Shown: positions 8,074 to 62,570 of the stretch, one piece after another
Layout of the letters: each line of letters opens with the position of its first letter
Numbering within the stretch: position 1 is the first letter of the stretch
Translations under genes and position numbers: made by a program
From: Kiloniellaceae bacterium
GTDB taxonomy: Bacteria; Pseudomonadota; Alphaproteobacteria; Kiloniellales; J153
Assembly (NCBI GenBank): GCA_021776135.1
Contig: JAJFGL010000012.1
Span: forward strand, 23,258-87,257
DNA length: 64,000 bases
Direction of reading: 5' to 3'
Notes under the pieces: model-generated
Seen by the model: the letters and a program-made list of their open reading frames with translations, nothing else
The model's database searches: none
What the model was told of the DNA's origin: nothing

Positions 8074-8131
8074 CGGTGCTTCAAGCTTTCCAAACTCTTC
8101 TCAAGCCGCGGCAATAGCGGAACATTGAACC

Positions 8132-30889: not shown

Positions 30890-31884
30890 CTTGTTGTGCC
30901 TCCTTGCAGACGGATGCGCGGGTCGAGCACCGCGAGCGCCAGGTCGGAGACCAGCACGCCAACGACAGTCAAGGAAGCCAGGAACATCAGGAACGATCCA
31001 GCCAGGTACATATCCTGGCTACGCAGCGCACCGAGCAACATGGGGCCGGTGGTAGGCAAGGATAGTATGATCTCGACCACCGCCGCGCCGGATATGATGC
31101 TGGGCAAAAGGCTGCCGATGTCGGCGATGAAAAAGTTGAGCGATAGCCGGAAGGGATATTTCAGCAGCAGCTTCAAGGGCGGCAGACCCTTGGCCCGCCC
31201 GGTCACGACGTATTGCTTCTCCAACTCGTCGAGAAGATTCGCGCGTAAGCGGCGAATCATGCCGGCGGTACCGGATGTCCCAATAACGATGACCGGTATC
31301 CAAATATGCTCCAGCACAGAAACGATCTTCGGCCAGGTCCAGGGCTGGTCGATATATTGCGCATCCATAAGGCCGCCGACCGAAGTTCCGAAAAACACAT
31401 TGGCTATATAAAGCAGGACTAGAGCGAGCAAAAAATTCGGCGTCGCGAGCCCGATGAACCCCAAGAATGTGAGCGTATAATCGCCCCAGCTATACTGCCT
31501 GACGGCGGAATAAAGACCGATGGGAAACGAAATAATCCAGGTGAAGACAATCGTCATAAGGGAAACCAGCGCGGTCAAATAGAGCCTGTCGCCCACAACC
31601 TCCGTCACCGGCAGGCGGAACTCGAAGGAATATCCGAAATCGCCGTGCAACATGCCCCAGACCCAGTATACGTACTGCTCCATGACCGGCCGGTCGAAAC
31701 CGTACTGGCGGCGCAAGGCCTCGATCTTTTCGAGATCGACGGATTCGCCCTGGGACTGAAGCTCGGCGATATAGCTTTCGAAATAGTCGCCGGGCGGAAG
31801 CTGAATAATGACGAATATGATCAGACTGATCGCGAGCAGGGTCGGGATCATGATAAAGAAGCGATGTACGATATAAGTGAGCAT
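30886..31884 (-). CDS. peptide ABC transporter permease (YejB/OppB-like)
   Basis: 332 aa; MLTYIVHRFFIMIPTLLAISLIIF start typical of DppB/OppB-type permeases. 4-bp overlap with the downstream permease gene. Confidence 0.9.
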   Translation of the reverse strand: MLTYIVHRFFIMIPTLLAISLIIFVIIQLPPGDYFESYIAELQSQGESVDLEKIEALRRQYGFDRPVMEQYVYWVWGMLHGDFGYSFEFRLPVTEVVGDRLYLTALVSLMTIVFTWIISFPIGLYSAVRQYSWGDYTLTFLGFIGLATPNFLLALVLLYIANVFFGTSVGGLMDAQYIDQPWTWPKIVSVLEHIWIPVIVIGTSGTAGMIRRLRANLLDELEKQYVVTGRAKGLPPLKLLLKYPFRLSLNFFIADIGSLLPSIISGAAVVEIILSLPTTGPMLLGALRSQDMYLAGSFLMFLASLTVVGVLVSDLALAVLDPRIRLQGGTTR

Positions 31885-31904
31885 GGCGGCTTATACAGAA
31901 GGTC

Positions 31905-32172
31905 CTAGAGCGCTTTCCGACCTTACGGACCCATTCGATGGGCCAGATCCGTTCACTCGGCTAAGCTGCGGCGCGCCGCGCGATGCGGGACATCGGGCTA
32001 GCGGCGGAGCGACGCCGATGAGCGGATATGGCCCACCGCAGGCCGGTATTTCGCGCCCGCTGGACGTCGTTGCGGCCCGCTTGCGGTCATCAAGACCGCG
32101 GTGCGGACCGCGCCTAGCCAGCAGACGCGAAATACCGGTCGAATGGGTCCGTAAGGTCGGAAAGCGCTCTAG
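31905..32172. mobile_element. MITE-like element, family B, copy 1 (268 bp) inside the ABC operon
   Basis: 34-bp perfect terminal inverted repeats ctagagcgctttccgaccttacggacccattcga (31905-31938 / 32139-32172). The core is shared with 48356-48621. Confidence 0.8.
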
Positions 32173-32198
32173 ATATCCAGCCTTACGATGCAGCCCGC

Positions 32199-34127: not shown

Positions 34128-36025
34128 GACGCGAGGGCCTCTGGCCGGGTTTCGGCGGCCGCGCGCACGAAATGCTCTTCTCCCAAATCGAAAAGCTTCG
34201 ACGGCGCCGCTTCGTTCAAGGTGAATGGTGCCGGAAAATCGGCGGACCCCGCCAGCTTCATGGCGGATATATGCCCAAAATCCAACTTACGGTCAGGATC
34301 GGGATGCGGCACGGCCGACAACAATGTCTTGGTATAGGGATGCACCGGATTGGAAAACAAGACATCGCGCGGCGCGACCTCGACCAAGCGGCCGTCGTAC
34401 ATGACCGCGATGCGATCCGCCATGTAATCGACAACCGCGAGATTATGCGAAATGAAAAGGTAGGTCAGCCCAAGCTCGCCTTGTAAATCTTTCAACAGAT
34501 TCAAAATTTGCGCCTGGATGGACACGTCCAGGGACGACACGGGTTCATCGCATATCAAGAGTTCGGGCTGCAGCGCCAGGGCGCGGGCGATACCCAAGCG
34601 CTGGCGTTGGCCGCCCGAAAAACTATGCGGATAGCGGCGCAGAAAACGTATGTCCAGGCCAACCAGGCGCATGAGTTCCTTGACCAACTCGATGCGCTCC
34701 TCCGGGGTGCCTACTTTGTGAACCACCAAGGGCTCGCTGATGATATCGAGCGCGGTCATGCGCGGGTTCAGCGACCCGAAGGGATCCTGGAAAATGAATT
34801 GGACCCGGCGCCGGAAGCTAAGCAGGGCATCGCCTTCCAAGGACAGAACATCGATTTCCTCGCCGGGGGTCAGGTAGGTCACCGTACCCGCGTCCGGCAG
34901 AAGGGCGCGCATGATGACCTTGCTGGCGGTCGTCTTTCCGCAGCCGGATTCGCCGACCAGGCCCAGGCATTCCCCGCGCCGGACCGTGAAGCTGACATCG
35001 TCGACCGCCGTCATCTTCACCTTGGCGCCCAGGCCCAGGATACCTTGTTGACGCAAGGTGAAGGACTTAGTCAGCCCCTTCACCTCCAGCAGGGCGTCGC
35101 CGGTCTTGACCCGGCCCCGGTTGTCCGTGCCGTCCGGCGCGGCCTTGCGCAGCAAACTGGCCTTACCCGGCGCGATCTCACGGATGGGGATCAATCTTTC
35201 GCCGCGGGTCATGTTAGTGCGCGGCACGGCGGTGAAGAGCGCCTTGAGATAGGGGTGTTCCGGCCGGGCGAAAATCTCGCCGCAGGGGCCGCTTTCCACA
35301 ACCTTGCCGTGATACATCACCACAACCTCTTCGGCGATATTGGCGACCACCCCAAGGTCGTGGGTGATGATCAGGACCGCCATGCCAAGCTCGCGCTGCA
35401 GATCGATCAATAGCTTGAGTATCTGGGCCTGAATGGTCACGTCCAGGGCCGTCGTCGGCTCATCGGCGATGAGCAGCGATGGGCGGCAAATCAAGGCCAT
35501 GGCGATCATGGCGCGCTGGCGCAACCCGCCCGACAATTCGAAAGGATAGGCATTGAGGGCGGCGGCGGGATTGGGGAAACCGACCAGGCGAAGCATTTCC
35601 TGGGTCAGGCCGCGCCCGGTCTCACTGTCGACGTCGCGGTGCAGGAACAAAGCCTCGCCAACCTGATCGCCGATCGTATGGACCGGCGACAAGGAAGTCA
35701 TGGGCTCCTGAAAAATGATCGATATATGGCCGCCGCGTATGGCGCGCATGGGTGCGCCGTCCCGGTTCAGCGCGGCGATATCGATCTCGGCGCCCGTCTT
35801 GGCCGGATCCCGGTACAGAATCTGGCCGCCGTCTATCCGCCCGACCTTGGGCAATATCCCCATGATCGCCTGAGCGACTGTGGACTTACCCGATCCGGAT
35901 TCGCCAACCAAGGCAACGGTAGAGCCTTTCCGGATATCGAAGGAAACGCCATCGACCGCGGGCACAATCGACCCATGGATACGAAACCCGACCTCCAGGT
36001 TACGAACCGAAAGGACGTCATTCAT
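34124..36025 (-). CDS. ABC transporter ATP-binding protein, fused double ATPase (YejF-like)
   Basis: ATG 36025. Two Walker A motifs ([18 protein letters not shown]) and two LSGG signatures. Confidence 0.93.
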
Positions 36026-36038
36026 ACAGCGCGGGCCC

Positions 36039-36698
36039 CTACCTACGGCCAATCAGCATGAAGCGGGTATAGCGCCGCCGCTTTAACATGCCTTCGTAAT
36101 ACAGCTCGCTCATGGGCAGCTGCACTTTAAGCGCCGCCAGATCGGCGACGCAGTTGACGTGCTCGTCGCAATCGAAATAGTCGTTCGATTGGACGGCCAT
36201 CGGCATGCCCGCGGGAATCCGGCCGTACCAATCGGCCTCGGGGGGCATGTGTTCGCAGCTCGTGTTGATCACCAGATTCGGCGCTTGCCCGGCGCCAAGC
36301 CTATAATCCAGGGTTACCGCATCGGCGGTAATCGCCTTGAAGCGGCCTTGGGCGCTGGCTGTCGCGTTAACACGCTCCGCCACCGGTGCGCAGACCGGAT
36401 CGATATCGTAGCTCAGAACCCGCGCCACCCGAAACCGTGCATCGCCTAGCAAAAGGGCGCCAAGGGCGCCGTACCAGCCGCCTAGGACATGGACGGTCCC
36501 GAAGTCTCCGCCCAGGGTCTCGTAGGTACGGTCGAGCAACCAGGTCTTGCTGGCGATCTGATTGGCATTGAAGGCATGTTCAAGCCCCTCGGGCGGCGCG
36601 GTGAAGCGCCCGCGCACGCCTTCGCTGAAATCCGCCGGGCCGCTAAAAGCCGCCAAGTCGGTTAGGGTTTCGGACTTCAGGCCGTCGTGGTCAAACAT
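36039..36698 (-). CDS. hypothetical protein, possibly methyltransferase-like
   Basis: ATG 36698; VHVLGGWYGALGALLL glycine-rich strand-loop. Assignment is weak. Confidence 0.4.
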   Translation of the reverse strand: MFDHDGLKSETLTDLAAFSGPADFSEGVRGRFTAPPEGLEHAFNANQIASKTWLLDRTYETLGGDFGTVHVLGGWYGALGALLLGDARFRVARVLSYDIDPVCAPVAERVNATASAQGRFKAITADAVTLDYRLGAGQAPNLVINTSCEHMPPEADWYGRIPAGMPMAVQSNDYFDCDEHVNCVADLAALKVQLPMSELYYEGMLKRRRYTRFMLIGRR

Positions 36699-36979
36699 CG
36701 AAATAACTGCTCCCCCGCCCCTCCCCTGCCCGCGAGCAAGGGAAAAGCCCGATCGTCGTACCCATGCCGTGCGCGGCCCGGCCCAGGCCGGAGCCAATTC
36801 GCCGGGCAAGCCGGCCCGCCATGGCTTTTGCCTTGTCTTGCTCTTCCGGCGGCTGGCCTATGGTGTTTTGTGCGGCCACCCAGGTCAAGCTCTTGTTCTA
36901 CGAGGTTATCTTGAACTTCGGGCTGGCCTGGGCTGTAATCGGCGGCACAACGTGAATTATGGGACATTTGGGGCCCAGG

Positions 36980-37399
36980 ATGCGCCAGGAACGTCACCTC
37001 ATCAAACTGCGGGCCGCCGCCCAGGGCATGGTCGAATTCACGCCCGAGGTGGCGGATTGGGTTGCCGGCGAGGGTTTTCGCGAGGGCCTCCTGACCCTTT
37101 TCATCCGCCACACCTCGGCCTCGCTTCTGATCCAGGAAAACGCCGATCCCGACGTTCTATACGATCTGCAGGCCTGGATGGACGCGGCGGCGCCCCAGGA
37201 CGCGCGGCTATACCGTCACGGCGCCGAAGGCCCCGACGACATGCCGGCCCACATAAAAAGCGCGCTGACTCAAAGCCATCTGAGCATTCCCCTTGGCGAT
37301 GGGAAAATGATGCTTGGCGCCTGGCAGGGGATTTACCTTTTCGAGCACCGCCGCCAGCCACGCGAGCGGCAGGTCGTTCTGCATTACATAGGCGAATAG
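36980..37399 (+). CDS. yjbQ: secondary thiamine-phosphate synthase enzyme YjbQ
   Basis: LTLFIRHTSASLLIQENADPDV...DDMPAHIKSAL...GIYLFEHR motif series. Confidence 0.85.
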   Translation: MRQERHLIKLRAAAQGMVEFTPEVADWVAGEGFREGLLTLFIRHTSASLLIQENADPDVLYDLQAWMDAAAPQDARLYRHGAEGPDDMPAHIKSALTQSHLSIPLGDGKMMLGAWQGIYLFEHRRQPRERQVVLHYIGE

Positions 37400-37480
37400 A
37401 TAATCGCACCCAAGGCGGCGGGCCACGGAAGGTGCCCAAGAGAACCTTCCGCGCCCGGTCGTTGGTATTTTCGAAAAACC

Positions 37481-37557
37481 TGGTCGGGGAGAGAGGATTC
37501 GAACCTCCGGCCCCCGCCTCCCGAAGACGGTGCTCTACCAGGCTGAGCTACTCCCCG
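37481..37557 (-). tRNA. tRNA-Pro (anticodon CGG)
   Basis: Reverse complement CGGGGAGTAGCTCAGCCTGGTAGAGCACCGTCTTCGGGAGGCGGGGGCCGGAGGTTCGAATCCTCTCTCCCCGACCA folds as a cloverleaf. Anticodon loop TTCGGGA; encoded CCA. Confidence 0.95.
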
Positions 37558-37633
37558 GAGCGGCCGGTTTATAGCGGCTTGCCAGCGCCTTGGCAACGGC
37601 CGAGCGCCGGCCGGGAAGTACGGAAAAAATGCC

Positions 37634-38764
37634 CTAAGCGGCGACCTGCTCGAGCTTGTCCATGAGAAAATCGATATCTTCCTTGGCAAAGGTCGATGCC
37701 GGATCCTCGAATTGCGTCAACATACGTTCCAGCATCTTGCTAATAAACCGGGCTCTATCGTTGGGTCCGCCGTCATAGTCGGTTTCCGACGTCAGATCGA
37801 TGCCCGCGCGAAAAACCGGGTACCAGCGCTTCGGCAGATTGGTCTTCAGGTAGATGGACTGCAATCCCAGCCCGCCGTCATCGTGAATTAAAATTCGGGC
37901 GTTCGGCAAGGCGACATTCGCGAGGCAGGCCAAGCCGCGCTCGAAGAAACTCAAGTCGCCTACGCTGATGGCCCGAAGCAAGAGCGAAGGCGTCAAGCGC
38001 CGCTTGCCGTGAAGCTGAAATACCAGGTCTTTCAAGTCCGCATCGGACGAACCGAATTGTACCAGGTTCATGGTCGCGCGTTCGCGCGCTTGAAGGATCA
38101 GGCTCGACGCGACATCGACCGTCAGTTCCTGTTTCTCCGAAAGATAATCCTGCAATTTCTGGGACACGGCCTCGATAAGCTGTTCGGAAATCGCGGCTGG
38201 CAAACTAGCCCGGCGGGACAGGGAATCGGAGACCCGGGTGCTGTTATCGTACTCGTCAATCACACGCTCCAGCGCGCTTTCATTCAGGTCCGCGCCTTCG
38301 TTGGAAACCAGGCGCGCGACCGCGGTTTCGTTTCCGGTATCGATCAGGGCGTCCGCCACGGTCGCGGAAACAAGGGGCCGTTGCGCCACCGCGACTTGCT
38401 TGACTTCGGACTGCCCGCGCACGATCCCAACTAAGTCCGCGTCGGACAGAACCTCGGAGAACTTAATCATCGGCAGCGCCACCGAATCGACATCGTTCGC
38501 GAGCGACAGGGCGACATCGCGCGGCAAGTCAGGAGAGGATTTCAGGTGTGCGGCAAGCGTTTCCCGGACCATGACCTCTGTATCCTTGACCAGAGTCCGA
38601 AAGATATCTTCCGCGATCAGGCGTTCTTTTTCGGTCAGGCCGCCGGTCGAAAACTTCTCCGCGATTTTCCCCGACGTGGTAGCCCGGTTATCGGCCGAAG
38701 GGTTGACCAGGAGGTTTTGGACATCCGCGGCGCTAAGCCGCTGTCGAACGATTTCTTCTGTCAT
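37634..38764 (-). CDS. DUF2336 domain-containing protein (paralog 1)
   Basis: 376 aa; helical-repeat protein. Aligns along its whole length with 38963-40090. Confidence 0.8.
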   Translation of the reverse strand: MTEEIVRQRLSAADVQNLLVNPSADNRATTSGKIAEKFSTGGLTEKERLIAEDIFRTLVKDTEVMVRETLAAHLKSSPDLPRDVALSLANDVDSVALPMIKFSEVLSDADLVGIVRGQSEVKQVAVAQRPLVSATVADALIDTGNETAVARLVSNEGADLNESALERVIDEYDNSTRVSDSLSRRASLPAAISEQLIEAVSQKLQDYLSEKQELTVDVASSLILQARERATMNLVQFGSSDADLKDLVFQLHGKRRLTPSLLLRAISVGDLSFFERGLACLANVALPNARILIHDDGGLGLQSIYLKTNLPKRWYPVFRAGIDLTSETDYDGGPNDRARFISKMLERMLTQFEDPASTFAKEDIDFLMDKLEQVAA

Positions 38765-38872
38765 CGCGCGCTAATTCCGCAGTCCGTGATTCCACATCCG
38801 CCACATATAACCCTCGGGCCGGCGTAGTGCGATCCAAAGAGCCTGGGCGTCTATAGTATGCTGATAGGTCGG

Positions 38873-38887
38873 TTAATCTAGGATTAA
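38873..38887. promoter_or_regulatory. CtrA-type box TTAA-N7-TTAA, 109 bp upstream of DUF2336 paralog 1
   Basis: ttaatctaggattaa read directly; matches the TTAA-N7-TTAA consensus exactly. Confidence 0.4.
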
Positions 38888-38962
38888 CACGTTATAATTC
38901 AAATGCTTAGATGATGTTGAATGGTGTAGAGCGCACCCTGCTCCACACATGGCGGCTGTTGC

Positions 38963-40090
38963 TCAGGCCGCGATTTGGCGAAGCTTGGTAATTAAAAACT
39001 CGATATCGGAAGAACTGATATTCATCGTGGGGTCTGGGAAACGGGTCAAGACGCGCTCCAGCATTTTCTCGACATAGCGCTCCCGGTCATTGCTGCCGCC
39101 GTCGTAGTCGGTTTCAACCGCGAGGACTATCGCGGCACGAAACGCCGGATACAGCGTCTTCGGCAACTTGGCCCGTAAGTACAGGGATTCGAGCCCAAGC
39201 ATTCCCGCATCGTGGATCAGCAGTTGTACATTTTGTAACGGCAGACCCGTTAACGTCGCGACGGAACGTTCGAAGAACGCCAAGTCGCCCGTGCACAAGG
39301 CGCGCAAGAGCAACGAAGGCGTTAAGCCGTTCTTGCGATGAAGCTGAGCGATCAAGGTATCGAGTTCGTCATCGCTGGAGCCATTGTCCAGAAGGCTCAT
39401 GATGGCCCGTTCGCGAACCTGGAGGATGAGATTGCTTGCGATATCGGGCGACACGTCATGCTTATCGATCAGGTATTCATGCAAGCGGTCGGACATCGCG
39501 GCGACCACACGCTCTGAAATGGCGGGGGGAAGATCGAGCCGCCGGGTCAAGGAATCCGTCACCGCGGTGCTGCTTGAATAATTCTCCACGACCCGGTCGT
39601 AGGCCGTTTCGCTTATCCGCGCTCCTTCATTGCGCACCAGGCGCGCCACCGCTTCTTCGTTGCCGGTATCCACCAAGGCGTCGGAAACCTGCTCTGAGAC
39701 CTGGGGCCGTTGCGCGACAGCCGACTGTTTCGCGGCGCTCTCGCCGCGAACAATGGCGATCAGATCTTCATCGGTCAGAACATCGGAGACCTTGAGTAGC
39801 GGCAAGGCGACCGACTCCACATCCCGAGCCAAGGTAAGGGCGACATCGCGTGGCAAATCCGGGTTGGTCTTGAGGTGCGCGGACAAGGCTTGGCGCACGC
39901 GAATCTCGGCATCCGCCGAAAGGAGCCGGAAGATATCTTCCGCGATGCGCCGTTCCTTGTCGTTGAAGGCCGAGACATCGAAAGACTTAGCTATAGTGGT
40001 CGTGGTGGCGGCGCGCGCCTCGGGGGATGGATCGGAAAGCAGACGGGCAACATCGTCTTTGCTCAGCCATTGCGTGTTTTTTTCCGTCAT
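38963..40090 (-). CDS. DUF2336 domain-containing protein (paralog 2)
   Basis: ATG 40090 (MTEKNTQW, parallel to MTEEIVRQ of paralog 1). The ORF track extends to 40147. Confidence 0.8.
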   Translation of the reverse strand: MTEKNTQWLSKDDVARLLSDPSPEARAATTTTIAKSFDVSAFNDKERRIAEDIFRLLSADAEIRVRQALSAHLKTNPDLPRDVALTLARDVESVALPLLKVSDVLTDEDLIAIVRGESAAKQSAVAQRPQVSEQVSDALVDTGNEEAVARLVRNEGARISETAYDRVVENYSSSTAVTDSLTRRLDLPPAISERVVAAMSDRLHEYLIDKHDVSPDIASNLILQVRERAIMSLLDNGSSDDELDTLIAQLHRKNGLTPSLLLRALCTGDLAFFERSVATLTGLPLQNVQLLIHDAGMLGLESLYLRAKLPKTLYPAFRAAIVLAVETDYDGGSNDRERYVEKMLERVLTRFPDPTMNISSSDIEFLITKLRQIAA

Positions 40091-40199
40091 ATCGAACTGG
40101 CACCGTTTGTTTGGTTGCCCTGCGGCATCCGGAATGGCTCCGGTCATGGACCGGAAAAATACTCGCCTACCTCAAGGAATAGTATGACTTATGCCTGGT

Positions 40200-40214
40200 T
40201 AAGCTTAGTTTAAC
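40200..40214. promoter_or_regulatory. CtrA-type box TTAA-N7-TTAA, 110 bp upstream of DUF2336 paralog 2
   Basis: ttaagcttagtttaa read directly. Preceded by tagtatg, as at the paralog-1 site. Confidence 0.4.
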
Positions 40215-40248
40215 GGCTGTCTTCTAAAGAGATCAGGGCCCTTTCCAT

Positions 40249-40294
40249 GGGCCCGTAGGGCAGGAAAAAGGGGGCCCGTAGGGCAGGAAAAAGG
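40249..40294. repeat. 23-bp perfect tandem duplication (x2)
   Basis: gggcccgtagggcaggaaaaagg at 40249-40271 and 40272-40294, immediately 3' of the stop of the 40298-41056 gene. Confidence 0.9.
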
Positions 40295-40297
40295 GGC

Positions 40298-41056
40298 CTA
40301 ATTTCGCGCCAGCAAGGCGGCGGCGACGGCGCGCACCTGATCCTCGGCCGACACATCCATGTACGAGGTCACCTCCAGATCGCGATCCTCGTAAATGTCG
40401 CGATCCGGGTGCTTTTCGGCCCAGTCGGAGGTCGCGGCGTCGCGCGCGTCCAACAAGGTCGTGATCTGCGGCTTAAACAGGCAAATCATGGCCGTAATCC
40501 AGCGATTGACCGGCCAGGACGGCTGTGTGTGGTCTATTTTGAAGTAATCCAACAGGGTCTTGACGTCCTGGGCCGTGTACCAGACTTCGCCCGTTACCCA
40601 GCGGTTTACCGTAAACAGGCGAAATGGCAGGCCCTTGTTATCCATGGCAATGGCGATCAGGTGGCTCAGCGCGTCGTCCGGGTCTTCCGGGGCCTTGTAT
40701 CCCGCCACGGGCGCCGGCTTGACGCCCGGCGGCATGCCGCGCGGCCGAATGAAGGTGTGGAAATGGCCGTGCTCGTCGTCGAATCGCTCTTCGACCGGGT
40801 GCGCGTGGAAATAGTATTGACCGTGAGTTTCGCGGTCGTACACGTCGCCCGGCGGGTAATGATCCCATTCGTAAAAAGTTTCGTGGCTCTTAATCAACTC
40901 GCCAACGAGATTGTCGCTGGTTTTGGCCAGGGCACGGTAAATCTCCACGACCTCCCGTCCCGCCTCGGCCATGGATTCCAGGTCATCCCGATCCAAGCCA
41001 TCGAGGTTCAGGTCGAAATCGGTTCTATACCCGTGAAGAAAGCTATCGTTGCGCAT
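40298..41056 (-). CDS. conserved hypothetical protein (His-rich central region)
   Basis: 252-aa ORF with good coding character (YYFHAHPVEERFDDEHGHFHTF); family not recognised with confidence. Confidence 0.55.
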   Translation of the reverse strand: MRNDSFLHGYRTDFDLNLDGLDRDDLESMAEAGREVVEIYRALAKTSDNLVGELIKSHETFYEWDHYPPGDVYDRETHGQYYFHAHPVEERFDDEHGHFHTFIRPRGMPPGVKPAPVAGYKAPEDPDDALSHLIAIAMDNKGLPFRLFTVNRWVTGEVWYTAQDVKTLLDYFKIDHTQPSWPVNRWITAMICLFKPQITTLLDARDAATSDWAEKHPDRDIYEDRDLEVTSYMDVSAEDQVRAVAAALLARN

Positions 41057-50600: not shown

Positions 50601-52400
50601 CTAGCGGCGCCCGAACAGGCGTTCGATATCGGCCAGTTTCAACTCGACATAGGTCGGGCGGCCATGATTGCACTGGCCGGAATGGGGAGTGGCCTCCATC
50701 TGGCGCAGCAGGGCGTTCATCTCGTCCACATTGAGGCGGCGTCCGGCCCGCACCGAACCGTGGCAGGCCAAGGTGCCGCAGACCTCTTGCAAGCGTTCCT
50801 TGAGGGCCAGGGATTGACCGATTTCCGCCAGTTCGTCGGCCAAATCGCGGACCAGGCCCTGCACGTCGAGATCGCCCAGCAGGGCCGGCACCTCGCGGAC
50901 CACCACGGCGCCGGGGCCGAAGGCCTCGAGCACCAGTCCCAGGGCGGCCAATTCTTCGCTACGCTCGCTCAAGCGCGCCGCCGCCTCGGGCTCCAATTCC
51001 ACCACCTCCGGCATCAAAAGCGCCTGGCGGGTCACGCCTTGGGCGGCCATTTGCTGCTTCATGTCTTCGTAAACCAGGCGCTCGTGGGCGGCGTGCTGAT
51101 CGACGATGACAATGCCGTCGGCGGTTTGCGCGACCACATAGGTTTCATGGACCTGCGCCCTGGCGGCGCCCAAGGGGTAGTCCGCGTCCAGGTTTTCCGG
51201 CGCCTGGTCCGCGGCCGCGCCGGGCGCCGCCGCCAGCGCCGGCAAGGGCGCTTGGCCCGCCAGGGATGTTTCGGCCAAGCCTCGTGGCGCTACGCCGCCG
51301 GCGCGGGCGCGCCAGGTCTGGGCCACGCCTGGATTATGGCCGGGGCGAAAGGCGCCCAGGGCCGCCTGGGCCACGCTGCTTGATGCCCGGTGTCCCGCTT
51401 CGGCCAGGGCATGGCGGCAGGCGCCGACGATCAGGCCGCGTATCAGGCCGGGATCGCGAAAGCGGACCTCGGCCTTGGCCGGGTGGACGTTCACGTCGAC
51501 CGCCTCGGCGGGCAGGTCCAAAAACAGAGCCAGAAGGGCGTGGCGGTCGTGGGCCAGGAAGTCGTGATAGGCGCCGCGAACCGCGCCGTGGAGCAGCTTA
51601 TCGCGCACCGGGCGCCCGTTCACGAAGAGGTACTGATGGCGCGCGTTGCCCCGGTTCAGGGTCGGCAGGCCGATATATCCGCTGAGTTTGACGCCCTCGC
51701 GTTCGGCCTCGATGGGCAGGGCGTTGGCGGCGAAATCCCGGGCCATGACCGCGCCCAAGCGTGCTAGCCGCGTATAATTAAGTGCGCCTTGCGTAGAGGG
51801 TAAGTGCAGTAATTTGCGCGTTCCGTCGAATAAAGTGAAGCCGACCCGGGGGTGCGCCATGGCCAAGCGCTGCATGGCGTCGAGGACATAGCCCTGCTCC
51901 GTGCGCGTGGTCTTGAGGAACTTCAGACGCGCCGGGGTGGCGAAAAAAAGATCCCGCACCTCGATCCGGGTGCCGGGGGCTTGCGCGGCCGGGGTCAGCG
52001 CGCCGCGCCGTCCGCCCTCGACGCTCAGGGACCAGGCCTGGGCGCCGTCTTGCCCGCCGCGGACCCGGCTGGCGAGGCTGAGGCGCGAGACCGCGCCGAT
52101 GGAGGGCAGGGCCTCGCCGCGGAAGCCCAGGGTCGCGATGTTGACCAGATCGTCGCCGGGCAGCTTGGAGGTCGCGTGGCGCTCCAGGGCCAGTTCGATC
52201 TCGGGCCCGCTCATGCCCTGGCCGTCGTCGGCGACCGAAATAAATGTGCGGCCGCCGTCGCGCAAGACCACGTCGATCTGCTTGGCGCCGGCGTCCAGGG
52301 CGTTTTCGACCAGTTCCTTGACCGCCGCCGCCGGGCGCTCGATCACCTCGCCGGCGGCGATGCGGTTGACCAGGGTTTCCGGCAGGCGGCGCAGGGTCAT
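50601..52400 (-). CDS. mutL: DNA mismatch repair endonuclease MutL
   Basis: ATG 52400 ([39 protein letters not shown]). Start overlaps the pgi stop (ATGA). ORF-track entry 50601-53255 is over-extended. Confidence 0.95.
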
Positions 52401-53701
52401 GTCTTGGCCCCGTCCAGATAGTTCCGGGTCAGAACCTTGCTCTCCTCGACCGCCGGCTGATCGAAGGGGTTCACCCCCAGAAGATCGGCGGCGAGGATGG
52501 TCTCGAGCATGAAATGCATCATGAGCCCGCCCAGTGCCGCCTCGTCCACCCGTTCCACCGACAGCAGCCGCACCGGGCGGCCATTCTTCGCCAGGGTCTC
52601 GGCGGTCGCCCGGGCCGAGGCGGCGATCAGGTCGCCCAGGGGCCGCCCGGCCAGGTAAGCGGCCCCGGCGGCCTTGGCGAAGGCCGCGTCCATGACCGGC
52701 CCTTCGCCGCCGCAGGCGGGCATGACCAGGGTGAACATCTTGTCGCGCGGCCCGGCCAGGTAGAGCTGCAGCTGAGAATGATGATCCGCCGTGCCCAGGG
52801 CCCGCAGGGGCGTGGTGCCGGTGCCGTCCTTGCCCAGGCTCTCGGCCCAAAGCTGCCGGTACCAGAGGCCCAGGTTGGCCCAGCGGTCCTCGTAGGTCAT
52901 GAGAACGCTTTGCGTAATGCCCCGTTCCTGCAGCAGCCCCATGGCGATGGCGGCGCCCAGGGCCGGGGCCACGTCCTCGACCCGCTTCGCCTCCAGGGCG
53001 GCGCGCAGAACTTCGTTCGCGCCACGCCGCAAGGCCGCCACATCGAGCCCGGCGAGCAGCCCCGGCAAGGCGCCGACAACGGAAAACACGGAAAACCGCC
53101 CGCCGATCCCCGGGTGGTGCGCGATGACCCGTAGGCCGTGACTGGCGGCGATGCGCGACACAGGGCTCTCCCCCGCCTCGGTGATGACGACCGCATGATC
53201 GCCAAGCGCCGCCCGCCCCACCGCCGCCGCCAAGGCCGGCAGCAGGACCGCGCACTGAGCCAGGGTTTCCGCCGTCCCGCCCGATTTGGAGATAATGACC
53301 AGGCCGGTGCGCGCCAAGTCCAGCGCCCCCAGGAGCGCCGCCATGGTGTCGGGATCGACGTTATCGAGGAAGTGCAGACGCGGCCCGCCCAGGGCCGGCC
53401 CGAACCCCCGGTCCGAAAGGGCATACAAGGTCTTGCCGCCCAGGGACGAGCCCCCGGTGCCGAGGATAACCGCGTCGTCCAAACGCCCGCGCCAATCCTC
53501 GGCCAGGGCGCTCAGGTCTTCCAGGTCGCCGCTGTCCCGGACAACGCCCAAGGCCGGCAAACCGCCCGCGCCGAAAACCTGGCACAGCCGGTCATGGGCC
53601 GGCGCGGCGGCCATGAGCCCGCGCGTCAGGGCCCCATCGCTCAAGCCCCCTTCGCCGATATGATCGGCCAGGCAGGTATCCGTCAGGTGTTTGAAGGTCA
53701 T
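52397..53701 (-). CDS. pgi: glucose-6-phosphate isomerase (short bacterial type)
   Basis: 434 aa; [13 protein letters not shown], two SIS-like halves, C-terminal [10 protein letters not shown]. Confidence 0.9.
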
Positions 53702-53868
53702 GATGGCGGCAAGCTATCAGAGTCGCGGGACGCCGGGAAGCGGGCGGTGGGAGGAAAATGCGACGGAATGCGATTTGAGGTGCCGAGAGCGCAAGGTCGA
53801 ATCGAATGTCGGTTCAGCGGATGAAAGCGGTCGTTGTTCTTATGCGATGAGAGAGTCCGGGGTTAGCC
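53664..53868. repeat. direct repeat copy A (native pgi 5' end plus ~170 bp upstream)
   Basis: tcggccaggcaggtatccgtcaggtgtttgaaggtcatgatggcggcaagctatcagagtcgcgggac...ggatgaaagcggtcgttgttcttatgcgatgagagagtccggggttagcc. Recurs at 62533-62739 and in part at 57392-57490. Confidence 0.85.
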
Positions 53869-54050
53869 ATTTTCAAAAGTTCGCCGGATTCGGAATACCG
53901 TCAGCTCAAGGGCTGGAATCGACCCAACGCGGACGTTCATGGGCAAGCCCGTTTACTTCCGCTTTGGGGGCAGAAGGAAACATTAGACAATGATTACTAT
54001 ATTCTAGTATTGGTTGTGATCCAACTTGGTTTTCTTTTAGACTGCCTTAA

Positions 54051-55817
54051 ATGGACCGTTTTGAATTCACCCGGCTTTTTTGTGAACGTCCCCAATCGTA
54101 TGCATGGTTTTTGGGTGCTGGTGCGTCCCGGAATGCGAATCTTCCAACTGCGGAAGACATCCTTACAGATTTAAAGCGGCGTTATTACTGCTCGGAAGAA
54201 AATCAAGAATATTCCACCAAAGATATGCAGAACGAGGCAGTGAGGTCGACCGTTGAGGCATATGTCAAGACGCGCGGTTTTCCTGAACGTTGGGCTCCCG
54301 AAGAATACACAACATATTTTCAGACAATCTTCGGTGAAGACCGTGAGCGGCAACGTCGATACATAATTGGCATGTTAGCGGAAGACCGCGTTCGACTAGC
54401 CGTCGGTAATCGTGTGTTCGGCGCGCTCTTGGCAAGCGGTCTCGCGCGAGTCGCGTACACAACGAATTTCGACACCGTCGTGGAAAAATCGATCGCGGAA
54501 ATCGCCGGAAAGTCACTTTCTGCGTTTCACCTCGAAGGCGCGCATGGTGCAATTGCTGCCATCAACAACGAAGCGTATCCATTTTACTGCAAACTACATG
54601 GTGACTTTCGCTATGACAGCATCAAAAACCTCCAAGCCGATCTTGCCTCACAGAATGAAGACTTGTCGCGCAGTCTTGTAAATGCCGCCAATCGTTTCGG
54701 TCTGATTGTTGTTGGCTACTCCGGACGCGATGCCAGCGTCATGGGTTTACTGCGCGAAGCTCTCGACAACTCAAATCCGTTTCCCCATGGCGTATTCTGG
54801 ATGATCACCAAAGGGTCAGCGGCACCCAAACCAGTTACTGAATTTATAGAAGCCGCGCGTGTACGCGGTGTAACAGCCGAAATGGTGGAGATCGAGACTT
54901 TTGACACCTTAATGCTCCGCCTATGGCGGAATTTGACTGAGCGTCCAGAAGGTATGGACGAGAAGGTACGCAAGGGGCGCGTTGATGCCGTGTCTCTTCC
55001 AATTCCGGAGACCGATGGCGATAGACCGTTGATGCGGTACAATGCCCTTCCGGTTTTATCTATTCCTGATACGTGTTTTATCTTGGAACTGAAAACCAAG
55101 CCGACTTGGGAAACCGTCGGTCCTACTCTCAGGGAAGCTGACCACAATCTCATCACGACCGTTGATGATGATTTGATGGCATGGGGCGATCTTGATGATG
55201 CGCAATCGGTGTTCGGTGACGACTTTGTTGGCTCGTCAGAACATAGTTTCGAGTCGGACTGGCGAAAGACAGGCCGGTTGCACATCAAAAAGTTCTTAGA
55301 AGACGGCATAGGTAAAGCGTTCGCGCGCACGCGTCCGCTTCTCATGCGTCGGCGAGGATCTGGCGTCGTGCTGATCGTCGACAAGATGGCGGATGACGTG
55401 GGCATATTCGAACCACTCCATGCGATAACGGGCAAGACGACTGGCACAATCGCAGGCTTGTCCATTCCCGAAACTGAAGAGCACGATGCGGTCAACAAAG
55501 TGGACTTCGCAGAATCGGTTCGGATCAGTCTCGCATGGGGCGATGACCGTCTTTGGTTGCTGCTAAAGCCTGACGTGTGGATTTGGCCCCCATTCGCACG
55601 TCGTCACGCAACTCAATGGCTGGAGAAACGGAGGGGAGATCGAAGAAACGACAAGCACGATATGCTATTGAGCGCCTGGATATCCGTGCTCACCGATGGC
55701 GCAGGTCGCGCCGAAGACGTGACCCTCACGGCTTTTGAAGGTGAATCAGGACCGGGGAACCCATCCTATAGAATCTCCAGCAGAACCGGATACTCGAACA
55801 AGCGGGGACGCCGATGA
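54051..55817 (+). CDS. SIR2-APAZ protein (SIR2_2-type NADase domain + Argonaute-associated APAZ-like C-terminal region)
   Basis: 588 aa. [14 protein letters not shown] (aa 19-32), YTTNFD (N139, D141), CKLHGD (H183), VVGYSGRD (aa 220-227). About 330 further aa carry no enzyme motif. Stop overlaps the pAgo start. Confidence 0.85.
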
Positions 55818-57253
55818 GCTCAATCATTCTACCCGCCTACGTGTCGGTGCCAGAACCTGAACTATTGTTCCACAATAAGGGCAGAGATCGCCATCCGCTG
55901 CGAGGGCTCATTGATCATGGTCCGTTTAGCTTGCGGTTTGGTGCGCCTTCACGCGTCAGGTTCGCACTCGTCGCTCCCAAAAACGAAATGGCCCGGCTCG
56001 AAAACCTTGTTCATGAATTGGGTCAAACCGCAAAGCCGCGAGAAGCGATAAACTACTACCCGGACTATCCCGGATTTGAGACGGTGTTCCGCACTCCAAT
56101 CGCGCCGATCGATGACACACTCAAATTCGTGCTTCCGCAGGACTTGGACCGGTTCGCAGATGAAAACGACAAAATCAAAATGGCGCGTTTGCTTTTTTCT
56201 GAGATCGCGAAGCTGCGTACTCTCAAGGGGCAATTCGATGTCGCCCTGATTTATCTGCCGCGTCGATGGAGCGCTTGCTTTGAAGGCGAAAACTTCAATC
56301 TTCACCATTACCTAAAAGCGTTCTGCGCTCCGTCTCAGATTCCGATCCAGATTCTAAACCAGGACAGCTTCGACAGAATATGTCGCGCAAACGTCATGTG
56401 GGGGTTGTCCGTGGCGCTGTTCGCGAAGGCGAACGGAGAACCTTGGAAGCTGACAGGTCTCGACCCTCAAGAAGCCTTCATCGGCATCAGCTACGCGATG
56501 CGGAGAAAAGCTGGCAACAGCGGTCAGGAATACACAACATGTTGCAGCCAAATATTCGACCCAGACGGCACAGGGTTTAGGTTTGTTGCCTATGATGCAA
56601 AGGAATTCACTGAGGATCGACGACGGAACCCTTACCTTTCCTACTATGAAATGCAGTCGGTGCTTTCAAAGAGCATGTACGTCTACCAGCAGGGTCATGT
56701 CGGGCGCACGCCCAGAAAAATCACGATCCACAAAAATACCGAATTCAAGCCGGAGGAGATTGAAGCCGCGCTTGATAGTTTCAATGAGGGTACGGAGGTT
56801 GAATTGGTCCAGGTCGTTCAATCAACGGATTGGGCAGGCTTACGTTACACACCAGGCCGGGCCGCTTCGATAGACAAACCCGCCGAAAGTCAGAAAGCGC
56901 ACAACTATCCAGTAGAGCGGGGAACATATGTTCCGATGAGCGCAAATGAAACGCTGGCGTGGACGCAAGGAAGTGTCCGGGGTGTGCAGCTTCAGAACCC
57001 AAATTATTATGTCTACAAAGAAGGGGCGTTAAAGCCTACACCTTCACCAATTTTACTACGTCGCTTTTCGGGATCAGGTGGCTGGCACGAGACGGTCAAC
57101 GGAGTTCTTTCGCTAACCAAAATGGATTGGAACAACAATACGCTCTATAAGAAACTACCGGTCACCATGGTGTATTCCAGTCGTTTTGCGGAGATCATTC
57201 AGCAGAACCCAGAATTGGTTGATCAGGTCTATGATTTCCGCTGTTTCATGTGA
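55814..57253 (+). CDS. short prokaryotic Argonaute (MID + PIWI only, predicted catalytically inactive)
   Basis: 479 aa. [20 protein letters not shown] hallmark and H164-x3-K168...Q179...K205 pocket spacing. PIWI catalytic positions read as S226 (FIGISY), N308 (IHKNT) and S456 (VYSSRFAE). ggggac RBS before ATG 55814. Confidence 0.85.
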
Positions 57254-57391: not shown

Positions 57392-57490
57392 CCCCTCGCC
57401 GATATTATCGGTCAGGTGTTAGAAGGTCATGATGGTGACAAGCTAACAGAGTCGCGGGACGGCGGGCAGCGGGCGGGGGTCGGAAAATGC
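57392..57490. repeat. direct repeat copy B (degenerate pgi 5' end plus upstream)
   Basis: The reverse strand reads atg acc ttc TAA cac ctg acc gat aat atc ggc gag ggg (pgi codons 1-19 with K4 to stop and a 15-nt deletion), then gatggtgacaagctaacagagtcgcgggacggcgggcagcgggcgg. Confidence 0.8.
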
Positions 57491-57593: not shown

Positions 57594-58475
57594 CTATCGG
57601 GGCGCGGGGGCGCCGTGAATGATGCCTTTTTCGCGGCCGGTGACGCGGGTCTGGCGCATGCGCCGCCGCCAGCGGCTGGCATCGTACCCCGTCCCCCGGT
57701 GCAACATGCAGCGGTTGTCCCAGATCGCCGTATCGCCGGCTTGCCAGCCATGGGCGTAGATGTGCCGCGGTTGCGTCGCGCGTTCGAGCAGCTCGTCGAG
57801 CAGACGGCGGCTGTCGATACCGGACCAGCCCGGGATCGAGCGGGCGTGCGAGCCGACGTAATAGTTCTTGAGGCCGTTCGCCGGGTTTTCGCGCACCAGC
57901 CGGTGCATGACCGGAGGCAGCGATGCCGCGTGGTTCGGATCGACCGGCGCGACCTGGCTTCTGGAAAAGACGTAGTCATGGATCACGCCAAGCGGCGCAA
58001 TCGTTTCACGCAGGTCTCCGTCCAGCTGCCCATAGGCCGCGCGCATGCTGGCGAAGGCGGTCGCGCCCCCTTCGCCCGGCACCTCGTAGGCGTGGAGAAT
58101 CGAGACGAAGGACGGCACCTCGCGAAAGGAGGAGTCCGAATGCCACAACTGGTTGCCGGTCGCGTAGCGGGTGCTGGCATGGGCGTTGTCGCGCTTCGAG
58201 CCGTCATCCTCCACGTTGCCGACGGTGCCGAAGTAGGTCACCTTTCCGGTCTTCCCGAGGGTCACGTGTTCGGCCTCCGCCTCACCCAGAAGGCGGGTGA
58301 AGGCCAGCTGCTTCTCGTCGGTCATGTCCTGGCCGGGAAAGCATAGGAACGAATAGGTATCGATCGCGTCCCGGATCGCCGCCAAGTCGCCGTCCGGCAT
58401 ATGGCCGGTTAAGGCGGTCCCGGTCACGCGGGCGCCGAAATCATCGTGCAGGGGTTCGATACCGAGGTGACTCAT
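57594..58475 (-). CDS. TauD/TfdA family Fe(II)/2-oxoglutarate dioxygenase
   Basis: 293 aa; WHSDSSF (His-x-Asp facial triad region) and a C-terminal AIWDNRCMLHR. Confidence 0.85.
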   Translation of the reverse strand: MSHLGIEPLHDDFGARVTGTALTGHMPDGDLAAIRDAIDTYSFLCFPGQDMTDEKQLAFTRLLGEAEAEHVTLGKTGKVTYFGTVGNVEDDGSKRDNAHASTRYATGNQLWHSDSSFREVPSFVSILHAYEVPGEGGATAFASMRAAYGQLDGDLRETIAPLGVIHDYVFSRSQVAPVDPNHAASLPPVMHRLVRENPANGLKNYYVGSHARSIPGWSGIDSRRLLDELLERATQPRHIYAHGWQAGDTAIWDNRCMLHRGTGYDASRWRRRMRQTRVTGREKGIIHGAPAPR

Positions 58476-58595: not shown

Positions 58596-59567
58596 TCAGC
58601 AGCCCGCGACGCAGATGCCGCCGCCGTCGAACTCCATGGTCCTTTCGCTCAAGGGTAGGTGCACCGGCACCTTGACCGCCGTGATGAAGGCGTCGGTCTT
58701 GGTGCCGGCGACGACCTTGCCGCCCTCTGTGGCGACCTCGTTGGCGTGCGAGACAATGACGCTGTTCGGCTTGACCAGGTCGTTGATAACGAAGGCCGCT
58801 TCCGTCGGCCCGGTGGTGAAGACGTCGCCGATGTTCATGACCGCGAGCGTGGCCTTGTAGTGCCGGCGTACCACGCTGTCCTGCTCGGCGGTAATCCCGG
58901 TATCGCCCGACAGGTAAACGACGAGCCCGTTCGAGAAGGTCAGCACGTAGCCGGTCGGCGGGCCGGCATAGCCCGCGAGGCCGGCCGCCTTGAGCAGTTT
59001 TCCAAGTTCGCCCCCGATAAAGGCTGGATTGACGCCATTCGAGTGAACCGCCGGAACGGTGGTGATCTTGACGCCGCCGAACGCGCGCGCCGAGCCGAAG
59101 CGCGCGAGTTGCGATTTTTTCTCATCGCCGCCCAGCGCCTTCAACTTGGCGCCGAAAAACTTCCGCATCTCGCTGCCGGTGACAATCGTCGCGTTCTTGG
59201 CAAGGGCGATGTTGACGGTGTTGGTGTTCGGCGCCGCCGTGACGGAAAGCGTCGGCTCGCCGCAGGTTCCCGCGTTGGGCTGCGGCTGATGCTTGTCGCC
59301 GGCATGGTCGCCATGCATGTGGCTTACCAGAACCACATCGATCTTGCCGAGGCGCGGATCCTTGGCGCCCGCCACCGTGCGGCCCGCGTCATACAAAATT
59401 CTCGTGCCGTTCGGATCCTCGAAGATCATCGCCCGGTCGAATTTGCAGAATTCGCCTTTTACGAGCCCAAGCGGGGTGACCTTCACGTTGGCCGCCTTAG
59501 CGGGATGCCCGGCAAGGCCCACTAACCCGGCGGCCAAGGCCACCAGGACATAACGAATGGTGCGCAT
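58596..59567 (-). CDS. secreted MBL-fold metallo-hydrolase
   Basis: 323 aa; signal peptide MRTIRYVLVALAAGLVGLAGHPAKA; VLVSHMHGDHAGD metal motif. Confidence 0.8.
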   Translation of the reverse strand: MRTIRYVLVALAAGLVGLAGHPAKAANVKVTPLGLVKGEFCKFDRAMIFEDPNGTRILYDAGRTVAGAKDPRLGKIDVVLVSHMHGDHAGDKHQPQPNAGTCGEPTLSVTAAPNTNTVNIALAKNATIVTGSEMRKFFGAKLKALGGDEKKSQLARFGSARAFGGVKITTVPAVHSNGVNPAFIGGELGKLLKAAGLAGYAGPPTGYVLTFSNGLVVYLSGDTGITAEQDSVVRRHYKATLAVMNIGDVFTTGPTEAAFVINDLVKPNSVIVSHANEVATEGGKVVAGTKTDAFITAVKVPVHLPLSERTMEFDGGGICVAGC

Positions 59568-59883
59568 CGGATGCTCTCCTTCTAACTAAGTGCCCGTTAC
59601 CCGAATCCTCCCCCGCATCCCCTGAGTTTATCGATTTTCAGGTTCGGAGAAAGTGGGTTCGCTCATCTTCGCAGCCTTGCGTGAGAGCACAGGCGCGCAC
59701 GAGTTCTTAGGTCATACACGAAATAAAAATTCCCTTACTATTAGAAAACAATGATTAAAATCAAATATTATATCGCTGCAATTTTCACATCACGTATGTT
59801 TTATCAAGAATATGTCATATAAATATTGTAAAATACTCGTGTGTGCACTATATGTTTATTGGCAGCAAATCATTGCTGCCGGA

Positions 59884-60045
59884 ATGAAAGACATTTACAT
59901 GTCCTTTAAGAATTTTTCCTCGGCACAAGACGCCTCGAGTAAAAGCAGCCCCGGCGACAAGTCCAAGCCCGCGCAGGCCGCCGTTCAACCGGCCACACAA
60001 CCTGACAAGACACCGGACGAAGCCGCGCCGACGCCCAAGTCGTAG
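59884..60045 (+). CDS. small Pro/Lys/Ala-rich hypothetical protein (start 59884 or 59899)
   Basis: Short ORF after a very AT-rich spacer; low-complexity sequence, uncertain. Confidence 0.3.
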   Translation: MKDIYMSFKNFSSAQDASSKSSPGDKSKPAQAAVQPATQPDKTPDEAAPTPKS

Positions 60046-61741: not shown

Positions 61742-61977
61742 ATTTGCCCGGTATTTCTCTGGCCCAACCTCGTCTTAATTGAGAGGGAAGATCCCAAATA
61801 TCGTCAAAATATCCGTATCGAATATATTATAAAAAGCATTGTTATCAGAAGATTACGGAGCAATATAGCCGGCTATTTATTTTTATTAATATTTAGGTTT
61901 TACTGACTTCTATTTTCGGGTATATTTATAGGTTATTGAGGGGAGAAATAATTTTTCCCCAAAGGGAGAACAACCAA

Positions 61978-62328
61978 ATGAAACAACTTGAATGGCTAAA
62001 GCCTGCACTATTTGGCGCCGCGGCCGGTGCTGTCGCGCTCGCGGTCGTCGGCTTCTCATGGGGCGGATGGATGACCGGCGGGGCGGCCGAGAAATTGGCC
62101 TACAATCAGGCGCGGCTCGAAGTCGTCGCCGCCTTGGTGCCGATCTGCATGGAACAGTCCAACCAGGACCCGCAGGTCGTGGCCATGCTTGCCCAGTTGA
62201 AGGACACCAGCAGCTATCAGCGCAACGACATGCTCATGAAAGCCGGCTGGGCCACGATGCCAGGTTCAAGCGATCCCAATCGGGACGTCGCGCGCGCGTG
62301 CATGGCAAAACTGGCGGCCCAGTTCTAG
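61978..62328 (+). CDS. hypothetical membrane-anchored protein
   Basis: ATG 61978 with agggaga RBS; one TM helix ALFGAAAGAVALAVVGFSWGGW. Confidence 0.55.
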   Translation: MKQLEWLKPALFGAAAGAVALAVVGFSWGGWMTGGAAEKLAYNQARLEVVAALVPICMEQSNQDPQVVAMLAQLKDTSSYQRNDMLMKAGWATMPGSSDPNRDVARACMAKLAAQF

Positions 62329-62357: not shown

Positions 62358-62447
62358 TTTGATGGAATCAAAACCGGATCCTAAGTTTTTTGTTTTGTCG
62401 TGTTTCCGGACGGAAAACCGGCATCCACATTTCCTGGAACCACTCTA

Positions 62448-62570
62448 GGACTTCGGCGCCTTCCTATTCGACACCACGCCATCCGGCCGCCCGACAATAA
62501 CCACCGCCAGCTTGTCGGCGTCGTAGAGCCGTTCGGCCAGGCAGGTATCGGTCAGGTGTTTGAAGGTCAT
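62448..62570 (-). pseudogene. pgi 5' remnant: first 12 codons identical to pgi ([12 protein letters not shown]), then unrelated sequence to a stop after 41 codons
   Basis: Reverse strand from ATG 62570: atg acc ttc aaa cac ctg acc gat acc tgc ctg gcc gaa..., ending with tag at 62448-62446 by my hand translation (end coordinate approximate). Confidence 0.6.

Follow-up and report, generated by a model that had tools for sequence, protein, structure and literature searches.

Short prokaryotic Argonautes (pAgos) of clade S1B, as defined by Koopal et al. 2022 (PMC9097488), are encoded in an operon with a SIR2-APAZ protein, lack the DEDX tetrad and form with their partners the SPARSA-B systems, of which XavSIR2-APAZ and CcSir2/Ago are examples. 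The mechanism and phenotypes of the pair from Geobacter sulfurreducens (GsSir2/Ago or GsSPARSA; Gs in residue names) have been described (bioRxiv 10.1101/2021.12.14.472599 (Zaremba et al. 2022), PMC10781750, PMC11452484). According to these sources, the two proteins form a heterodimer, as is also known for CcSir2/Ago, and the Y168A substitution abolishes the formation of tetramers; N142 and H186 of GsSir2 have been proven catalytic (PMC10781750, PMC11452484), and the PDB entries 8Y7Z, 8Y80 and 8Y82 are structures of the complex (PMC11452484). The subject of the present analysis is a two-gene operon at 54051-57253 of a 64,000-nucleotide stretch (the window) of contig JAJFGL010000012.1 of a Kiloniellaceae bacterium, which very probably is a functional SPARSA-B (S1B, Sir2/Ago) abortive-infection system, horizontally acquired and residing in a slot of variable content at the 5' end of pgi, the gene for glucose-6-phosphate isomerase.

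The operon consists of a Sir2-APAZ gene followed by a short pAgo gene, i.e. in the same order as in G. sulfurreducens, and the two open reading frames (ORFs) overlap by 4 nt (ATGA at 55814-55817) as opposed to 11 nt in the Gs operon. The encoded proteins, of 588 and 479 residues, are collinear over their full length with the Gs chains (587 and 473 residues, respectively), while the alphaproteobacterial host and the genomic context are different. An earlier note, made from the letters of the window, had proposed these two frames with their ATGA overlap; both are present as claimed, without internal stops, and the motifs that it quoted are found in the translations, namely a motif at residues 19-32, YTTNFD at 136-141, CKLHGD at 180-185 and VVGYSGRD at 220-227 of the first protein, and the Argonaute hallmark at residues 201-213 of the second. 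The features of the operon are the following.

54003..54050, + strand: leader of 48 nt, conserved with respect to the closest genome locus (L003), in AT-rich surroundings
54051..55817, + strand: Sir2-APAZ gene, 588 residues, ATG start, no internal stops
54051-54968 (residues ~1-306), + strand: Sir2 NADase domain, from homology to the GsSir2 domain limits (PMC10781750)
Residues ~306-328, + strand: linker between Sir2 and APAZ, from homology to the GsSir2 domain limits (PMC10781750)
55032-55814 (residues ~328-588), + strand: APAZ, from homology to the GsSir2 domain limits (PMC10781750)
54465-54467, + strand: catalytic codon N139, equivalent to Gs N142
54597-54599, + strand: catalytic codon H183, equivalent to Gs H186
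55814..57253, + strand: short pAgo gene, 479 residues, ATG start, no internal stops

The presence of a SIR2_2-type domain followed by an APAZ region in the first ORF, which had been predicted in the earlier note, is borne out by profile and structure-database searches. The Pfam SIR2_2 model is matched with E 2.2e-13 over residues 134-260, and the PADLOC model Aga_SIR2-PNTD1-PNTD2 with 4.6e-186 over residues 10-584 (model positions 1-556 of 558). Among PDB chains, GsSir2-APAZ (8in8_B/8y80) matches residues 5-582 with 3.9e-127, the two proteins being 37% identical over aligned pairs and the C-terminal 260 residues aligning to the GsSir2 APAZ; the entries matched under the name of 'Sir2 superfamily protein' are 8IN8, 8JKZ, 8JL0, 8K87, 8K88, 8Y7Z, 8Y80 and 8Y82. 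All GsSPARSA residues of reported functional importance were mapped onto the window proteins. N139 and H183, singled out for mutation in the earlier note, are the exact equivalents of the catalytic N142 and H186 of GsSir2 (PMC10781750, PMC11452484), the NAD cofactor loop G22-A34, including A23 and A34, equals Gs G25-A37, S224, R226 and D227 equal Gs S227, R229 and D230, and both R293 (Gs R296) and the catalytic loop are conserved. In MAFFT alignments of homologues taken from genome loci (64 Sir2-APAZ and 80 Ago sequences), N139, H183, G22, A23, A34, S224, R226 and D227 are conserved in 63-64 of the 64 Sir2-APAZ proteins.

These comparisons also bear on the annotation of the gene, which needs to be corrected. 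The NCBI gene call is of 530 residues and starts at M59, i.e. 58 codons too late, so that 54051-54224 are dropped and, with them, the invariant NAD-binding loop G22-A34 is removed. The Logan call and all homologues agree with the 588-residue start at 54051, and the longer reading is, as judged from the aligned sequences, the supported extent of Sir2-APAZ.

The second ORF encodes a short Argonaute made of MID and PIWI domains only, with no N or PAZ domain, as had been proposed. It matches the PADLOC pAgo_I model with 1.2e-186 (619 bits) over residues 6-479 (model positions 5-457 of 457) and, over the same residues, GsAgo (8in8_C) with 9.3e-170 (569 bits), listed as 'Piwi domain protein' in the PDB entries that are matched by the first ORF; identity to GsAgo is 54% over aligned pairs. 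The 5'-phosphate pocket has the same residues as in Gs, H164 and I180 (Gs H166 and I182), and so has the metal site, N440 and the C-terminal M479 (Gs N434 and M473). F156 and R188, which read the guide at its 5' end, and the 2'-OH contacts Y240 and K402 are present, and the sensor loop D261-S276 is unchanged in length with respect to Gs, with its tip (N272/Y274) kept. F156, H164, I180, R188, Y240, K402, N440, M479, N272 and Y274 are invariant or nearly so in the 80 Ago homologues. Across the two proteins, therefore, the NADase dyad, the NAD loop, the S/R/D motif, the MID 5'-phosphate pocket, the metal/C-terminus site and the sensor-loop tip are identical to those of GsSir2/Ago.

By analogy with the characterised systems, the mode of action of the pair can be envisaged as follows. 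The translationally coupled Sir2-APAZ and MID-PIWI Ago proteins would assemble into a 1:1 heterodimer, in which APAZ would replace the missing N/PAZ lobe. The nuclease-dead Ago would take short 5'-phosphorylated RNA guides in the MID pocket, with the participation of H164, I180 and a metal bound via N440 and M479. Pairing of the guide with complementary single-stranded DNA of an invading plasmid or phage would displace the PIWI sensor loop D261-S276 and free the Sir2 domain, upon which the complexes would oligomerise, presumably into tetramers. Finally, the N139/H183 site would hydrolyse NAD+ to ADP-ribose and nicotinamide and, through NAD+ depletion, the infected cell would be killed or arrested, which would be the basis of a defence phenotype.

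The relation to the other systems that combine some of these parts can be defined from the match scores and from the domain content. With respect to clade S1B, the operonic arrangement of SIR2-APAZ and of a short pAgo without DEDX is shared, the best PADLOC models are those of the operonic class I pair and no difference is found among the clade-defining features; the architecture and gene order anticipated by the earlier note are thus those observed, with GsSir2/Ago as the closest characterised relative. The placement in S1B is by score ranking only, with 619 bits for the operonic pAgo_I model versus 320 bits for the fused one, and the other PADLOC pAgo models score at most 201 bits, except for the unclassified PDLC02436 (393) and PDLC02384 (289). 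The fused SIR2-APAZ-pAgo proteins of clade S1A (PgSir2-Ago, JomSPARSA) resemble the pair in that PDLC02420 matches the Sir2-APAZ half with 2e-65 and the Ago half with 1.4e-95, but the window carries two separate genes and the fused-model scores are about half, or less, of the operonic ones. SPARTA (TIR-APAZ, S2A) and SPARDA (nuclease-APAZ, S2B) also associate a short pAgo sensor, distantly similar to the present one, with an APAZ-fused effector; the window effector is, however, a SIR2 protein rather than a TIR protein or a nuclease, and the Ago similarity is partial and far weaker than that to GsAgo. Indeed, the short-pAgo PDB chains other than GsAgo, which we take to include SPARTA entries, match the second ORF with at most 86 bits (1e-16 to 1e-23) and partial coverage.

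Three further candidates were considered and rejected. SPARTA was ruled out on the nature of the effector, a SIR2 protein for which no TIR match was found with Pfam and PADLOC. Thoeris ThsA and DSR2 share with the first ORF a NADase domain of the SIR2_2 type and its Asn/His dyad (PMC10781750), but its C-terminal region is APAZ instead of SLOG or the DSR2 body, and the sensor is an Argonaute instead of being based on a signal nucleotide or on a phage tail-tube protein; ThsA was ruled out given the APAZ C-terminus and an adjacent gene that encodes an Argonaute rather than ThsB. Long pAgos (long-A or long-B) were ruled out by the length of 479 residues and by the alignment to the MID-PIWI part only of TtAgo (residues 237-666 of 685).

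The family to which the operon belongs is large and widespread. In the protein collection that was searched, 1,394 Ago homologues are found at E <= 1e-30, the 120 best listed being 63-95% identical; for the two proteins of the window themselves, this public collection gives neither name nor accession. A genome scan limited to one genome per species gave 125 relatives; the 80 loci retained (57-88% identity) are distributed over Alpha-, Beta- and Gammaproteobacteria, Acidobacteriota, Nitrospinota and others. Sir2-APAZ is directly upstream of Ago in 77 of the 80, and of the three loci without a Sir2-APAZ match two (L043 and L077) end at a contig edge; the gene order itself is shared by 76 of the 77 genome loci in which it could be assessed. 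The sole real exception is L029 (8483-11389) of Ruegeria denitrificans CECT 5091, where a 461-residue putative integrase (PF13009) precedes an orphan Argonaute, a class I short pAgo with 63% identity to that of the window; here the Argonaute stands alone, its effector gene apparently lost to displacement. Homologues are also present in 20 plasmid records, 9 of which are predicted to be conjugative, and the cassette was not found in the phage records searched. Since the family is large and already characterised, the operon is another member and not a discovery: it is a textbook SPARSA-B operon, an ordinary member of a solved and biochemically characterised family, and its weight for the biology of defence systems is little, being one more alphaproteobacterial SPARSA-B homologue in a family of >1,000 with published phenotypes and several cryo-electron microscopy structures.

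The closest genome locus (L003, in a Hyphococcus sp. metagenome-assembled genome) is 88% identical in Ago and 78% in Sir2-APAZ, and the next-closest (L004) 84% and 66%, respectively. In the comparison of the window with these two loci, nonsynonymous divergence (dN) is 0.07-0.25 and synonymous sites are saturated, which indicates strong purifying selection on both genes; with synonymous divergence (dS) saturated, the dN/dS ratio is not computable by the NG86 method, and the qualitative conclusion alone is used. DNA homology with L003 runs from 54003 to the Ago stop codon at 57253 exactly and, being confined to the operon and its 48-nt leader, implies that the mobile unit is essentially the two genes.

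The composition of the DNA sets the operon apart from its surroundings. Its G + C content (GC) is 0.518 versus 0.687 in the left flank (49.0-53.6 kb) and 0.642 in the right flank (57.6-59.5 kb), with transitions at ~53.75 kb and ~57.5 kb, and it falls to 0.445-0.46 across 53900-54199. This drop, along with the empty or alternative content of the corresponding site in relatives (see below), establishes that the operon is horizontally acquired, foreign DNA beside pgi, so that the 'acquired patch' of the earlier note holds. The same is true of the alphaproteobacterial host, in agreement with Kiloniellales as the source of the closest named PGI relatives and with a two-piece (permuted) transfer-messenger RNA of the alphaproteobacterial type at window positions 1-316 (Rfam RF01849, 232 bits), the 5' end of which is cut by the window start.

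Several observations, discussed together in this and in the two following paragraphs, weigh against the assignment to a functional system of the Gs type. The Pfam Piwi model is not matched by the second ORF at E <= 0.1, nor is any other Pfam model, and NCBIfam returns only a sub-threshold Argonaute match; thus, among the profile matches envisaged in the earlier note, those to SIR2_2 and to the SIR2-APAZ and pAgo_I models of PADLOC were obtained and that to Pfam Piwi was not. The miss is not counted against an Argonaute, since the matches to PADLOC models and PDB chains are overwhelming and lie far outside chance. A second point concerns the loss of the nuclease site. The DEDX equivalents of GsAgo are not stated in the structural papers, so the 80-member family was profile-aligned directly to TtAgo, encoded on the T. 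thermophilus HB27 megaplasmid pTT27 (L086), and the E-value of this alignment is weak (0.011). Collinearity nonetheless extends from MID to the C-terminus, the motifs GxDxx/GISYA and RDG/KNT being in register, and the alignment brings S226/R270/N308/S456 of the window Ago opposite D478/E512/D546/D660 of TtAgo, in whose sequence the tetrad was confirmed; within the family, S is found in 79 of 80 and N in 77 of 80 members at the respective positions, while the remaining two are mostly basic or non-acidic. The PIWI domain is hence catalytically dead through replacement of DEDX, a likeness to GsSir2/Ago.

A third set of points comes from residues that differ between the Gs proteins and those of the window. 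Several that make Sir2-Sir2 or Ago-Ago contacts in the active Gs tetramer, and were shown by mutagenesis to matter there, are changed in the window: H158 is replaced by S155, Y168 by H165, Q192 by D189, N244 by S241 and Q297 by N294, and H104 of the Gs pAgo by T102. Around the guide, Gs D164, which reads the 5'-A1, becomes N162 and Gs H310, a 2'-OH contact, becomes E310; in APAZ, Gs Y530/F532 are D/R. Taken with the modest identity of Sir2-APAZ to its Gs counterpart, these replacements could signify that the locus is a genuine SPARSA-B the details of which are unlike those of GsSPARSA, i.e. with a different oligomeric activation interface or 5'-nucleotide/guide preference, so that replicons other than those with the ColE-type origins sensed by the Gs system would be recognized; GsSPARSA itself prefers RNA guides with a 5'-AU. 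Such an explanation is unlikely, as the interface positions vary family-wide and the window has the family-majority residue at four of the six (S155, H165, D189 and N294), which amounts to ordinary within-family variation and not to a locus-specific trait; similarly, the family has D in 47 and N in 32 members at the position of N162. The catalytic loop, the NAD loop, the sensor-loop tip and R293 are, moreover, conserved. Read against the alignments, nothing in the operon departs from the family consensus, and in detail the interface between oligomers and the preferred 5' nucleotide may differ from those of Gs. A natural variant of this kind, with majority interface residues and N at the position that reads the 5'-A, could help to tell what in SPARSA activation is general and what is specific to Geobacter.

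A last point is that no sigma-70 consensus promoter was found when the upstream + strand was scanned, although this consensus is uninformative for an alphaproteobacterium; a promoter/terminator scan around the operon was likewise empty on the + strand, with counts not exceeding those of shuffled sequence. The 48-nt leader (54003..54050) presumably contains the ribosome-binding site region of the Sir2-APAZ gene and possibly includes part of the promoter. The lack of a recognisable promoter, a GC strongly atypical for the host and the orphan Ago beside an integrase gene in L029, which indicates that such cassettes get disrupted, are what one would expect of a silent or non-functional passenger, i.e. 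a recent cassette that is unexpressed or no longer protective and is heading for decay. The integrity of both ORFs, the presence of every functional residue and the strong purifying selection with respect to the closest homologues make this very unlikely, as does the recovery of the identical PGI-Sir2-Ago arrangement, assembled independently from the sequencing run SRR15505516.

The site of insertion is marked by pgi, which belongs to the host backbone. Its features in the window and in three relatives (L083, L084 and L085) are listed below.

52397..53701, - strand: pgi (glucose-6-phosphate isomerase; PF00342 PGI), host backbone, followed by mutL; marks the insertion site
53701-53699, - strand: ATG start codon of pgi
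53648..53761, - strand: pgi leader and first ~18 codons, proximal functional copy, i.e. left boundary repeat (repeat families D1 and D2; alignment to the relatives' pgi leaders)
57392..57490, - strand: pgi leader and 5' end, distal decayed copy, i.e. right boundary repeat (15-nt deletion; reads ATG ACC TTC TAA)
57594-58475: TauD-family dioxygenase, in the slot beyond the Sir2/Ago module
58596-59567: metallo-beta-lactamase (MBL)-fold protein, in the slot beyond the Sir2/Ago module
62445..62537, - strand: remnant of an M16_C peptidase gene, last 31 codons (tblastn of L085 M16_C, 81% over residues 415-445); far edge of the slot
L085, 7955-8001: empty slot (46 bp), M16_C directly preceding pgi
L084: slot with ParD/ParE; leader copies at 36-137 and 919-1020
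L083: slot with a 293-residue gene, a 54-residue duplicated PGI fragment and ParD/ParE; leader copies at 6804-7158 and 7965-8140

In the relatives, the backbone reads IleRS-LspA-DUF3035-M16-M16_C-[slot]-PGI-MutL-HPF-RsmD-RluB; the PGI orthologues are 81-86% identical and the synteny PGI-MutL-HPF-RsmD is conserved, while the IleRS-LspA-DUF3035-M16 genes that precede pgi in the relatives are absent from the window. With M16_C reduced to its last 31 codons at 62445-62537, the slot measures ~8.7 kb. Besides the Sir2/Ago module and the dioxygenase and MBL-fold genes, it holds about ten small ORFs without a Pfam match and very AT-rich spacers (GC 0.30 at 59700-59899 and 61800-61999). Neither a recombinase nor a transposase nor a further defence gene was found in 57.5-64 kb, and the filled slots (window, L083 and L084), as far as these were read, are all devoid of an integrase. 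As to the neighbouring mutL (50601-53255, - strand), the mechanical ORF list gives a GTG-started ORF of 884 residues that overlaps pgi; homology to the MutL of relatives (605 residues) spans only 50601-52400, so that the true mutL start and the pgi stop share 4 nt, the arrangement also seen in the relatives.

The two boundary copies of the window form an imperfect direct repeat of ~115 nt (88% identity, one 15-nt indel), the distal one being 89% identical to the pgi leader of L084. A second copy of the pgi leader precedes the cargo in L083 and L084 too, with breakpoints that reach into pgi by ~+8 nt in L084, ~+50 nt in the window and ~+165 nt in L083, and all copies share a recognisable core CGCGACTCTG[A/T]TAGCTTG that lies upstream of the pgi ATG by ~20 nt and occasionally differs by a single base. 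Whether the Sir2/Ago cassette brings flanking direct repeats with it was examined in five other Sir2/Ago loci, none of which has them; the duplication thus belongs to the pgi site and not to the cassette. In the 80 Ago-bearing loci, neither PGI nor TauD is found near Ago.

These arrangements raise the doubtful idea that small cassettes for defence or of the toxin-antitoxin type might be exchanged without a recombinase at the 5' end of pgi in this Kiloniellales-like group of alphaproteobacteria; a circular intermediate with a copy of the pgi leader would bring each cassette in through a Campbell-type single crossover. A crossover of this type would leave leader duplications of differing extent (+8, +50 and +165 nt) with no need for an integrase and, we infer, could explain why the cargo is leader-flanked and integrase-free with variable breakpoints. 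If this were true, the pgi site would illustrate concretely by what route minimal defence operons pass from one genome to another. The pgi-leader-flanked slot with its alternative cargo is a modest, only mildly interesting extra to the operon itself; it is a tidy variable hotspot, useful for studies of the exchange of defence cassettes without integrases.

The ParD/ParE genes in the equivalent slot of L083 and L084, and the intrinsic toxicity of a NAD+-depleting effector, would also be compatible with a pair whose main role is not immunity but addiction to, or stabilisation of, the island next to pgi. Co-occurrence in a slot is, however, uninformative on function, no antitoxin-like partner is present, and the homologues that have been characterised stay inert as long as no invader is present, their trigger being guide/target recognition, all of which renders this role extremely improbable in comparison with a SPARSA-B defence system.

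Elsewhere in the window, a second stretch of lowered GC (0.56-0.60 versus ~0.65) extends over 30000-41000 around the sole tRNA gene of the window, a tRNA-Pro(CGG) at 37481-37557 on the - strand, and could be another acquired island.

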